Assembly (NCBI GenBank): GCA_038245905.1
Contig: JBBRRY010000003.1
Coordinates: 32,001-96,000 of the forward strand
DNA length: 64,000 nucleotides
Direction: 5' to 3'
Source of the DNA: Thermoanaerobaculia bacterium
GTDB taxonomy: Bacteria; Acidobacteriota; Thermoanaerobaculia; UBA5066
In this document: piece by piece, positions 26,600-32,948 of the stretch
How positions within the stretch are numbered: the first letter of the stretch is position 1
How the letters are laid out: each line of letters opens with the position of its first letter
The notes under the pieces: generated by a model
Told to the model about the DNA's origin: nothing
Databases searched by the model: none
The model's input: the letters and a program-made list of their open reading frames with translations, nothing else
Program-made: the position numbers and the translations under genes

Positions 26600-28078
<1,479 letters not shown>

Positions 28079-28079
28079 G

Positions 28080-28496
28080 TTGGACGGACGCCTCACGCTG
28101 ACCGTCGTCACGCCCGAGCGCGCCGTGCTCCAGGCCGTTCCGTGCGACGAAGTGACGCTCCCTGCACAGAAGGGCGAGATCGGGATTCTGCCGGGACACA
28201 CGCCCCTGATCGCGCTCCTCGGAATCGGCGTCGTGGGGTATCGCGACGGGGCGCGCCGCGCGACCGTTGCCGTGCGCGGAGGCTTCGTGGAGATCGCGGG
28301 CGACGCCGTGCGCGTTCTGGCCGACACCGCAGCGGGGCCGGACGCCATTGACGCGGCCGCGGTCTCCGCCGAGAAGCAGGCAGCCGAGGGCCGCCGTGAC
28401 CAGGCCGCCGGGGACGAGGAGCTGGACGCGGCGGACGCGGACGCGCGTTTCGCGGAAGCGCGCCTCGCCACGGCCGCCATGGCACGGCCAGGCTGA
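28080..28496 (+). CDS. atpC: ATP synthase F1 subunit epsilon
   Basis: LTVVTPER, GEIGILPGHTPL and GGFVEI. Confidence 0.95.
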   Translation: MDGRLTLTVVTPERAVLQAVPCDEVTLPAQKGEIGILPGHTPLIALLGIGVVGYRDGARRATVAVRGGFVEIAGDAVRVLADTAAGPDAIDAAAVSAEKQAAEGRRDQAAGDEELDAADADARFAEARLATAAMARPG

Positions 28497-28533
28497 GCCG
28501 GAAAAAGGCGAGGAGAGGCAAGGCATGATGTCT

Positions 28534-28669
28534 CCGCGCGGGGCCGGTTGCCCCGGCATGGGGCTTGCGATGGTGGTGAGCAGGCCCGGTCGGCGCCGAA
28601 AGGGCGCGCCGGATCGACACGACACCTCCTGCCTCCTACCAGGGCTCCGCGCGGCGGAGCCCTCTTTTT
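28534..28669 (+). ncRNA. Candidate structured RNA (cis-regulatory leader or sRNA), family unassigned
   Basis: 12-bp stem 28534-28545/28643-28654 enclosing two hairpins, one GAAA-capped. -10-like CATGAT at 28524-28529. Overlaps the terminator. Confidence 0.45.
28641..28669 (+). terminator. Intrinsic terminator
   Basis: AGGGCTCCGC-gcg-GCGGAGCCCT followed by CTTTTT. Confidence 0.8.
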
Positions 28670-28715
28670 CTTCCTCGCGTCCCGGGCCGCGGCTGTCCGC
28701 GCCAGGAAACAGGCG

Positions 28716-29504
28716 ATGACGGCCGTGCGCGACCCGTGGTACGCGGAGTGGTTCGGAGAGGAGTACCTCGCCCTCTATCCGGAACGCGACGACCGGGAAG
28801 CCCGCCAGCAGGCCCTCTTCGTGCGGGAGCTGCTCTCTCCATATGCGCGGCTCGGCCGGCTCCGATTTCTCGATCTCGCGTGCGGAACGGGGCGACACGC
28901 GGTCGCGCTTCACGAGGGCCAGGGGGGCGTGGTGGGGCTCGATCTTTCGGCACATCTCCTCTTCCAGGCGCGGCAGCGGCAGGGACCGGCCCGCCCGTCC
29001 TGGGTCCGTTCCGACATGAGGCGGCTTCCTTTCCGCGGGGGCTCGTTCGGGGCTGTCGTGAATTTCTTCACGTCGTTCGGCTACTTCGACGATCTCGCCG
29101 ATGACGCGCGCGTCGTCCGGGAAGTCACGCGCCTCCTCGCGCCCGGAGGCGCCTTCCTCTCGGATGTCTTCAACGCGGAACGCGTGATCGGGACGCTCGC
29201 GGTGCGCGAAGAAAAGACCGTGGCGGGAGCCCGCGTGAGCATCCGCCGACGGTACGATCCGGCGAGCCGGCGGGTGGAGAAGGAGATCGAGATGGGCTCC
29301 GGCGAGGACAAGCGCGTATTCAAGGAATGCGTTCGCGCCTACACGGAGCACGAGCTGCGCACGCTGCATCGGGCGGCCGGCCTGACGGTGCGAGCGGCCT
29401 ACGGGAACTTCGACGGAACGCCGTTCGACCGCGGCAAGTCGCCGCGCCTGATCCTTCTCGCGACGAAATCGACGGCACGCACCTCCGGCGAGGGTGCGCG
29501 ATGA
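28716..29504 (+). CDS. Class I SAM-dependent methyltransferase, candidate bacillithiol N-methyltransferase (NmbA-like)
   Basis: LDLACGTGRH, GLDLS, DMRRLP and FFTSFGYF. ATGA overlap with bshC. Confidence 0.85.
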   Translation: MTAVRDPWYAEWFGEEYLALYPERDDREARQQALFVRELLSPYARLGRLRFLDLACGTGRHAVALHEGQGGVVGLDLSAHLLFQARQRQGPARPSWVRSDMRRLPFRGGSFGAVVNFFTSFGYFDDLADDARVVREVTRLLAPGGAFLSDVFNAERVIGTLAVREEKTVAGARVSIRRRYDPASRRVEKEIEMGSGEDKRVFKECVRAYTEHELRTLHRAAGLTVRAAYGNFDGTPFDRGKSPRLILLATKSTARTSGEGAR

Positions 29505-31830: not shown

Positions 31831-32948
31831 AGATCGGCATCACGTGCTACCCGACTTTCGGAGGCTCGGGAGTCGTCGCCACGGAGCTCGGGCACGAGCT
31901 CGCGCGGAGAGGGCACGACGTTCATTTCATCACGTATGCGATGCCGTCACGCCTGAACGTCTTCGCCGAGCGCGTCACCTACCACGAGGTGTCGGTCCCC
32001 TCGTATCCGCTCTTCCAGTACGCCCCGTACGATCTCGCGCTCGCGACGCGCATGGGGGACGTGGCGACGCACGTGGGCCTCGACCTCATCCACGTCCACT
32101 ACGCTCTTCCACACGCCATTTCGGCCCATCTCGCGCGCGAGATGCTCGCCCCGCGCCGGCTCGGACTCGTCACGACGCTGCACGGGACGGACGTGACGAT
32201 CGTCGGGCAGGATCGCTCCTACCTTCCGATCACGCGCTTCGGCATCGAGAAGTCGGACGCCGTGACCGCCGTGTCCGAGCACCTCAAGAGAGTCACGATC
32301 GACGTCTTCCAACCCAAGCGTGAGATCGAGGTCGTGCCTAACTTCATCGACCCCAGGCGCTGGACGCCGGAGTCGCCCGAGCGGGCGTGCCGGCTCGGCC
32401 CCGCGGGCCGGAAAGTCCTCCTCCACGTCTCGAACTTCCGGCCCGTGAAGCGTGTGCTGGACGTCGTCGAGATTTTCGACCGCGTGAGGCAGCGTGTTCC
32501 CGCGACACTCGTCATGATCGGGGACGGGCCCGACCGGCCAGCCGCCGAGGCGCTCTGCCGCGAGAAGGGGATCGCGCATCTGGTGTCGTTCCTCGGGAAC
32601 ATGTCAGCGCTCGAGACCGTGATGCCCGCCGCGGACCTCTATCTCCTGCCCTCGGACTCGGAGTCGTTCGGGCTCTCCGCGCTCGAGGCGCAGGCATGTG
32701 GCGTCCCGGTTCTGGGCTATGCCGTCGGGGGCCTGCCCGAGGTCGTTGCCGACGGGGAGACGGGCTTCCTCTGCGCCGTGGGCGACGTCGCGAGGCTGGC
32801 GGAAGACGGAGCCTCGCTGCTTCTGGATCCGCCCCGGTACGAGGCGATGGCGCACGCGTCGCGGGAACGCGCGATCCGGCTCTTCGACGCGGACGCGATT
32901 GTCTCGCGCTACGTCGCTCTGTACGAGCGCGTCCTCGCCGCGGCCTGA
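31827..32948 (+). CDS. bshA: N-acetyl-alpha-D-glucosaminyl L-malate synthase BshA
   Basis: MKIGITCYPTFGGSGVVATELG, HVHYALPHA, TTLHGTD, SNFRPVKR and ESFGLSALEA. Confidence 0.97.
   Translation: MKIGITCYPTFGGSGVVATELGHELARRGHDVHFITYAMPSRLNVFAERVTYHEVSVPSYPLFQYAPYDLALATRMGDVATHVGLDLIHVHYALPHAISAHLAREMLAPRRLGLVTTLHGTDVTIVGQDRSYLPITRFGIEKSDAVTAVSEHLKRVTIDVFQPKREIEVVPNFIDPRRWTPESPERACRLGPAGRKVLLHVSNFRPVKRVLDVVEIFDRVRQRVPATLVMIGDGPDRPAAEALCREKGIAHLVSFLGNMSALETVMPAADLYLLPSDSESFGLSALEAQACGVPVLGYAVGGLPEVVADGETGFLCAVGDVARLAEDGASLLLDPPRYEAMAHASRERAIRLFDADAIVSRYVALYERVLAAA

Follow-up and report, generated by a model that had tools for sequence, protein, structure and literature searches.

Introduction

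The enterobacterial small RNAs (sRNAs) GlmY and GlmZ act by protein sequestration and activation of glmS, not through an anti-Shine-Dalgarno seed. They come from short non-coding genes, each with a -24/-12 promoter and its own terminator, under the activator GlrR in Enterobacteriaceae (as described in the sections of PMC3844500 drawn on here). We predict a gene of the same plan directly behind atpC in a 64,000-nucleotide stretch of a Thermoanaerobaculia genome (assembly GCA_038245905.1, contig JBBRRY010000003.1, positions 32,001 to 96,000; called the window, with positions counted from its first base). The sigma-54 regulome of Desulfovibrio vulgaris, in the portion of PMC4641369 used here, includes four non-coding RNAs with dedicated activators, and shares with our case both this architecture and an abundance of enhancer-binding proteins. 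Neither GlmY and GlmZ nor the D. vulgaris RNAs are related to the present RNA in sequence or through Rfam.

Two other systems resemble the locus in part. The CuKoo/ar14-type sRNAs of Alphaproteobacteria (NfeR1, and also AbcR1/2) carry the anti-Shine-Dalgarno motif CCUCCUCCC, and the likeness lies in conserved, redundant CCUCC-type seeds directed at ribosome-binding sites and in sibling copies within one genome (bioRxiv 10.1101/2025.11.14.688489, in the parts cited). The paralog tracts described below, UUCCUCCUCC and CCUCUCCUCCC, are comparable to that motif. According to the same parts of that preprint, however, the CuKoo RNAs belong to another phylum, have three hairpins and have a promoter of a different type from our sigma-54 box, whereas the tract here is linear, lies between hairpin and terminator or at the 5' end, and has no Rfam match; the resemblance is likely convergent. 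MicL, encoded within or after cutC, is likewise an sRNA at the 3' end of a protein-coding unit that uses the common terminator and an alternative sigma factor, but that factor is sigma-E and the promoter lies inside the coding sequence, whereas our box lies just past the stop codon and is putatively of the sigma-54 type (PMC4102768, as far as the passages used here go).

We put the probability at about 0.6 that the gap behind atpC is a sigma-54-dependent sRNA gene that is ~92 nt long, ends in a terminator of its own and has one related copy elsewhere. Elements of this kind, sigma-54-driven sRNAs whose seed is anti-Shine-Dalgarno-like, are already known from other bacteria; the family itself is uncatalogued. 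Text searches of the literature found no description of sRNAs in Thermoanaerobaculia or of sigma-54-dependent sRNAs in Acidobacteria, and a comparative paper on sigma-54 regulons contains neither "Acidobacteri" nor "sRNA" in its text.

Results

A conserved non-coding element behind atpC

Between the atpC stop codon (TGA, 28494-96) and the ATG of a methyltransferase gene at 28716 lies a gap of 219 bp. Across 12 fully syntenic loci the mean pairwise identity is 0.82 in the element proper (28524-28640) and 0.88 in the terminator that follows it, as against 0.47 in the spacer after atpC, 0.36 past the terminator and 0.64-0.80 at third codon positions. When the gap was compared by BLAST with 60 relatives, strong matches appeared in 15 of the 28 other genomes of the same genus (E <= 1.5e-33, 82-91% identity), and these span from just past the atpC stop to the T-tail of the terminator and no further; genomes of other genera gave short weak matches only (best E about 1e-4). 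A further 13 loci from genomes and 20 from metagenomes came from scans with exact patterns, two of those from metagenomes being chance matches. The BLAST tally, like the order-wide tallies below, includes the unpublished genomes G037 and G042, from which no sequence was used, and only the counts for two other families depend on them.

The element shows no sign of coding. Its three codon phases score 0.833, 0.829 and 0.834, which is no periodicity, one-base indels occur inside it in the 29-sequence alignment A2, and the ATG at 28525, which opens a 64-codon frame in the window, is lost in L011, L013 and L016. For these reasons we exclude the open reading frame (ORF), and to judge from the alignments the element 28524-28672 is non-coding and under purifying selection. 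The signal that rises above chance is clearly this conservation, not a junction fold. A covariance scan of the whole window against Rfam 15 (riboswitches, leaders, sRNAs, 6S, SRP, ar14 and others) returned 0 matches at gathering thresholds, in line with a preliminary description of the locus, which could not match it by eye to the SAM, SAH, TPP, cobalamin, glmS, SRP or 6S motifs. A permissive scan of 28400-28800 gave four matches, all far under gathering, the best by E-value being Ms1 at 13 bits against 162. The element is conserved, non-coding and uncatalogued. Its parts are as follows.

28524..28549, + strand: conserved block upstream of the promoter box (alignments A1/A2), carrying a GC-rich palindrome or hairpin at 28530-28545, GTCTCCGCGCGGGGCC
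28555..28568, + strand: candidate sigma-54-type box GGCATG-GGGC-TTGC, with the -24 GG at 28555-56 and the -12 TGC at 28566-68
28569..28579, + strand: promoter-to-start spacer (A2 columns 53-66), purine-rich, the most variable stretch of the element
28580..28672, + strand: predicted sRNA of ~92 nt with a putative start; minimum free energy -44.4 kcal/mol, z = -2.07
28585..28612, + strand: 5' hairpin with a GAAAG cap in the RNAalifold consensus; loop and inner stem invariant in 29 sequences
28622..28640, + strand: pyrimidine-rich tract ACACCUCCUGCCUCCUACC, the proposed seed, unpaired in consensus folds
28641..28672, + strand: intrinsic terminator, with a 10-bp stem and 3-nt loop (28641-28663) and a U-tract (28664-28672), tail CTTTTTCTTC

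A predicted sigma-54 promoter

The pattern of conservation in the 5' half of the element is that of a -24/-12 promoter. In alignment A4, 21 sequences that cover three genera and both types of locus (behind atpC, and behind the RNase E/G gene rng, described below), the sole invariant columns of this half are GGCA and, seven columns on, TGC, which form a GG-N10-GC core; the N4 letters between the half-sites vary freely. A script that asked for the strict box GGCAYG-N4-NTGC, then a CU tract, then a T-run found all three at 59 of 63 loci (a set with three exact duplicates), and of the four misses L063 and L089 are one-letter variants while L087 and L118 keep the box and have only a T4 run. The 11-14 nt past TGC are the least conserved part of the element, and conservation is back at ~28581-83, near the predicted +1. 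This spacer has a mean purine content of 0.72 (56 loci: the window and 55 related ones) versus 0.51 at other boxes in the genome.

GG and TGC at -24/-12 are essential features of sigma-54 promoters, and the Salmonella sigma-54 sites include TGGCACGCCGCTTGCTCT as well as those of the sRNA genes glmY and glmZ (in the sections of PMC3844500 cited). The window's genome (G000) has the machinery for such a promoter: one copy of rpoN (Sigma54_DBD, 214.8 bits), 28 matches to Sigma54_activat, 22 of them at E <= 1e-48, and Hfq (63 bits). We consider the box at 28555-28568 most likely to be a sigma-54 promoter, a prediction drawn from its invariance and spacing. Since GG lies at 28555-56 and TGC at 28566-68, transcription would start near 28580, 12 nt past the -12 C. 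The preliminary description had taken CATGAT (28524-29) as a -10-like element and the hairpin at 28550-64 as part of a junction; we favour the box over the former, and the latter coincides with the -24 promoter element.

Activator sites usually lie 70-150 bp upstream of sigma-54 promoters (PMC3844500, in the part used here), a position that here falls within atpC. The conserved block 28524-28549 could be a 3' hairpin of the atp mRNA or a protein-binding site. Its helix 1 pairs in 95.9% of cells (sequence-by-pair entries of the alignment), with one compensated pair, and copies in the sister genus are without the block, the atpC stop there being 8-14 nt from the promoter box. The four G/C runs at 28530-28563 can form hairpins 1-2 and 3-4 or nested pairings 2-3 and 1-4, each in 92-95% of cells and with 2-3 compensated pairs; both fit alike, and a choice between them was dropped. 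The whole G/C-run region probably lies upstream of the RNA start.

Other boxes were seen in passing. On contig C1 of the window's genome, boxes of the sigma-54 type stand back to back at 32159 (-) and 32171 (+), each before an ORF that by eye has a hydrophobic N-terminal stretch, and look like divergent sigma-54 promoters. At C3:~137936 (-) another GGCATG-N4-TTGC box stands ahead of a CU motif and a T-run, in a sequence otherwise unlike the RNA family. The ORFs downstream of the other 16 boxes in the genome showed nothing telling by eye, no family search having been run on them. The rng copies of other genera (L104-L114) have extra GGCAC motifs before the box, AAATGGCAC ~19 nt upstream and GGGGCAC farther away (about 20 and 70 nt), which could be activator half-sites or relics of duplicated boxes.

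Hairpin, CU tract and terminator of the predicted RNA

The RNAalifold consensus consists of separate hairpins and the terminator, with no junction. The motif CCTCCTACC is invariant in the 29 aligned sequences, a set partly gathered using that very motif, and related CU tracts occur in the paralogs. In this genome CCTCC is found within 30 nt upstream of 7 of 120 terminators (5.8%), versus a background of 5.5%; terminators here do not carry a CU tract as a rule. One further terminator preceded by CCTCCT lies at C3:~107585-107607 (+) and is otherwise unlike the RNA family. We take the CU tract to resemble the 3' end of 16S rRNA, the anti-Shine-Dalgarno sequence.

The terminator was detected by a terminator scan and its stem is kept across loci, with 98.7% of cells pairing and eight of the ten pairs changed on both sides in an alignment fitted to the model; the pairs vary between U-A, U-G and C-G and between G-C and C-G. 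Much of what the preliminary description saw holds: this terminator is real, all the strings it quoted are where it placed them on checking (CATGAT at 28524-29, CCGCGCGGGGCC at 28534-45 and GGCTCCGCGCGG at 28643-54), and the hairpin at 28550-64, the GAAAG-capped hairpin (core 28585-28612) and the pyrimidine tract at 28627-37 are all present. Its suggestion of a stand-alone RNA also comes close to our reading, although the RNA we predict is ~92 nt long and starts at ~28580, rather than ~130 nt from 28534. Masking of the seed by the purine-rich spacer was considered and dropped, the duplex being no better (-8.3 kcal/mol) than those of shuffles of the same letters (-8.6 kcal/mol).

A second copy and the distribution of the family

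The element belongs to a family with a shorter paralog. R1, a covariance model derived from A2, detects the element in 22 of the 29 genomes of the genus. The copy behind atpC is present in 16 of these 29, the window's own included, and in at least 5 of 8 genomes of the sister genus. Six weak R1 matches are not near atpC and sit instead between RNase E/G and MFS transporter genes, with the RNase gene upstream in five. A second model (R2) was made from 39 aligned hits; at E <= 0.01 it has matches in 55 of the 63 genomes of the taxonomic family. By tblastn, the gene upstream encodes RNase E/G at 10 of 13 places in the genus and at 12 of 12 in five other genera. The short paralog, ~50 nt (44-53), keeps the box and a terminator and is missing the GAAAG-capped hairpin; its CU-rich 5' end is unpaired or almost so. 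The tracts of the rng copies read GCGCAC(A/U)UCCAACCUCCUGCC in the genus and GCGCACACUCCAGCCUCUCCUCCC in other genera, where the copy lies ~100 nt past the stop codon. The window's own genome holds one such copy:

G000 contig C34, ~28960-29040 (L096:2971-3077): second copy, immediately behind the RNase E/G gene and with an MFS-transporter-like ORF downstream, with box GGCATGCGGCGTGC, tract UUCCUCCUCC and its own terminator

Not all copies follow these two genes. L115, L116 and L119 have the full architecture behind other genes, and copies at L083, L100 and L101 are also behind genes other than atpC or rng; four of 20 fetched loci (L117, L120-L122) are without the box architecture. Elsewhere in the order two families have weak R2 matches, one in 31 of 81 genomes and the other in 3 of 7; we treat these matches as false positives, since all 14 of those inspected were plain terminators without the succession of box, seed and terminator. 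In the window's genome no RNA of this plan was seen within ~8 kb of the largest activator gene, a 1323-aa frame (C4:46000-62000). One genome of the genus, G005, with 7% estimated contamination, has two diverged atpC-type copies on separate contigs (L006/L032 and L039), more likely two strains in one bin than a duplication.

Discussion

How the RNA would act

In the reading we prefer, sigma-54 RNA polymerase would bind GG at 28555-56 and TGC at 28566-68 and, once fired by an enhancer-binding activator, would transcribe from ~28580 to the terminator at 28641-28672. The product of ~92 nt would begin with the 5' hairpin, continue with the largely unpaired tract ACACCUCCUGCCUCCUACC and close with the U-tailed terminator hairpin. 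Because the tract resembles the 16S rRNA 3' end, the RNA would pair with purine-rich ribosome-binding sites and so reduce the translation of its target mRNAs, probably with the help of Hfq. The atp mRNAs probably read through the module and stop at the same terminator. The activity of the promoter, the start site, action in trans, the activator and the targets of the sRNA are all things that we infer, and nothing firmer.

Several observations weigh against this account. The bare motif GGCAYG-N4-TTGC is not enriched genome-wide (17 occurrences at N4, versus 5-17 at other spacers), so the promoter call rests on invariance across homologues; these homologues are kin, not independent samples, and in most copies of the genus GG is preceded by C where T is usual. 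We identified no site at the locus for an activator to bind: the palindromes ~10 nt upstream of the box differ between the two locus types, and the one at 28530-45 is nearer to the promoter than the usual activator distance and, when searched for genome-wide as an enhancer, has no further copy beside a box. In the fold of the single sequence, the 5' half of the tract (the first CCUGC) pairs with the first five bases of the RNA. A scan for targets found 419 sites complementary over 9 nt or more, versus a mean of 403 for shuffled seeds, and thus gave no signal; and since this assembly is without the 16S 3' end, the anti-Shine-Dalgarno likeness rests on general knowledge. The preliminary description had named conservation and covariation together as a check; the element is conserved, but covariation is slight among the 29 close homologues, and the stronger figures for the terminator come from the alignment fitted to the model. 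A mutual-information scan of A2 was set aside, its top pairs following clade structure and not helices.

RNA libraries add a little to either side. Four metatranscriptome runs from two studies, all in the form of assembled contigs, were matched to 27800-29300 at 85% likeness, and contigs from three of the four cover the element. One spans 28581-28741, across the terminator, and its start at 28581 is a hint only. Also to be counted against a local start are two contigs that join atpC to the element (records 5 and 6 of X1), two that extend beyond the terminator, and the nature of assembled contigs, whose ends and strand are unreadable and which may derive from DNA. Depth in run X1 is higher over the element than past the terminator, a difference we did not use because contig depth cannot rank regions. 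The contigs speak weakly: they attest presence in RNA libraries and fit both read-through from atp and a local start.

Alternative explanations

The element might belong to the atp operon as its conserved 3' untranslated region (UTR), with the paralog in the same role on the RNase E/G mRNA. The sRNA may then be cut out by a ribonuclease, or the element may stabilise or tune the upstream mRNA in cis, and GGCA...TGC would be an RNA motif or protein-binding motif instead of a promoter. Both locus types do start 0-30 nt past the stop of a co-oriented gene, on the same strand, and share the terminator of its mRNA. A consensus scan of 28000-29200 found no sigma-70-like promoter, and the atp operon has no other terminator than that of the element; RNA contigs bridge atpC and the element, and the block 28524-28549 before the box is conserved too. 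But a 3' UTR leaves unexplained why GG-N10-GC(TGC) is invariant with free letters between its halves and why conservation is lowest in the 11-14 nt past TGC and back at the expected +1, nor does it sit well with the copies behind genes other than atpC and rng (L115, L116, L119, L083, L100, L101) or with the rng copy ~100 nt away in other genera. We regard this explanation as unlikely.

The preliminary description proposed something different, a junction-fold riboswitch or attenuator in which a 12-bp closing stem (CCGCGCGGGGCC with GGCTCCGCGCGG, extended by GGT/ACC) excludes the terminator and so controls read-through into methyltransferase-bshC-bshB-bshA. The stem does pair in the window's sequence, but it is not conserved: with its extension it pairs in 74.3% of cells over the 29 homologues, a value reached by 231 of 500 shuffles. 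Of the six outer pairs, only the outermost holds in nearly all of the 29 sequences (it is broken in 2); the other five fail in 8-22, and the three pairs of the extension in 3, 14 and 27. As pairing in homologues equals that of shuffles, we reject the stem and see it as a feature of the window's sequence alone. Folding energy is ordinary in comparison with shuffled sequence, both for the 220-nt gap (z = -0.74) and for 28524-28669 (146 nt, z = -1.39). If the start near 28580 is right, the 5' strand of the stem would also be outside the RNA, since the start lies downstream of it.

The genes downstream of the element vary by locus. It precedes the methyltransferase gene, bshC directly, an MFS transporter gene or unrelated genes; the methyltransferase gene is missing in three species that keep the RNA, and five genomes of the sister genus have the element between atpC and bshC. 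Conversely, all five module-less species of the genus that were examined keep a CCTATCATCG box before the methyltransferase gene, in a gap of only ~55 nt that holds CCGCCTATCATCG. In many module-bearing species CCCCTATCAT(C/G) comes directly after the T-tail. A box of the form C(C)CCTATCAT(C/G), with a -10-like TATCAT or TATGAT, precedes the methyltransferase gene or bshC in most relatives, with or without the element (L008-L016, L087-L095, L118, L125-L129). Because the element occurs without the methyltransferase gene and the TATCAT box occurs without the element, it appears to behave as a cassette inserted between atpC and the promoter-like box of the downstream operon. With downstream genes that differ and RNA-less relatives that keep their TATCAT box, a riboswitch for the bacillithiol operon is unlikely.

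A looser form of this idea, in which most transcripts, whether from the sigma-54 promoter or from atp, end at the terminator and regulated read-through feeds methyltransferase-bshC-bshB-bshA, possibly in the window's subclade only, draws on several features of that subclade. L001-L007 and close metagenome copies have no TATCAT box, none is present at 28673-28715 of the window, and these 43 nt, which lead up to the methyltransferase ATG, hold no promoter-like site; in L003 that ATG abuts the terminator T-tract, the contig 28581-28741 crosses the terminator, and GGGGCC (28540-45) could pair with GGCUCC of the terminator 5' arm in all sequences. The strong and invariant terminator speaks against such a leader, as do the unkept antiterminator stem, the variety of downstream genes, the boxes of the module-less species and the absence of an Rfam riboswitch match. 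Some dependence on read-through in the window's subclade is conceivable; as an account of the element, the leader is improbable.

We judge just as doubtful a module with two inputs and two outputs, which would join these ideas. The source of the transcript would set the masking of the seed: read-through RNA from atp or rng might carry the purine spacer and mask the CU tract, whereas a sigma-54 start would omit the spacer and leave the anti-Shine-Dalgarno seed free. In the window's subclade, leakage through the terminator would, in addition, feed the bacillithiol operon and be the main source of its methyltransferase/bacillithiol mRNA. Were this true, one sigma-54 signal would set both a translational brake and thiol synthesis.

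In the window a frame for a small protein of 64 codons runs uninterrupted from ATG 28525 to TGA 28719, with the Shine-Dalgarno-like GGAGAGG 6 nt before it, and overlaps the methyltransferase start as ATGA, but we reject this protein as next to impossible on the flat periodicity, the lost ATG, the one-base indels and length changes that break the frame, the unalignable sequence past the terminator, and the terminator inside the frame.

Neighbouring genes

The surroundings of the sRNA gene we predict are, in order, atpD and atpC upstream and, downstream, genes for the methyltransferase, a BshC-domain protein, a PIG-L deacetylase and a GT4 glycosyltransferase. The immediate neighbours are these.

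28080..28496, + strand: atpC (F-ATPase epsilon; Pfam ATP-synt_DE_N, 79.3 bits), the upstream gene, whose stop lies 28 nt before the conserved element
28497..28523, + strand: variable spacer past the atpC stop, mean pairwise identity 0.47 over 12 loci
28716..29504, + strand: S-adenosylmethionine-type methyltransferase gene (Pfam Methyltransf_25), the downstream neighbour

The longest bshC ORF (ATG 29327) overlaps the methyltransferase gene by 178 nt, and homology to relatives begins near 29500. Judged from this homology, the true start is more likely ATG 29501, which overlaps the methyltransferase stop as ATGA (29501-29504), and bshC is probably translationally coupled to the methyltransferase gene through that overlap.

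Implications

The analysis corrects a riboswitch call beside bacillithiol genes that was plausible but wrong, and shows how a -24/-12 promoter in GC-rich DNA can pass for an RNA hairpin. Acidobacteriota are among the commonest soil bacteria, and to our knowledge almost no regulatory RNAs are known in them. A review table of 2022 lists four distinct annotated sRNA families for the phylum (PMC9029176). The element described here is a concrete candidate with a readable promoter, present in most of the searched genomes of one Thermoanaerobaculia family of uncultured soil bacteria and often in two copies, so that its activator, its signal and its targets are open to comparative genomics and to soil metatranscriptomes.

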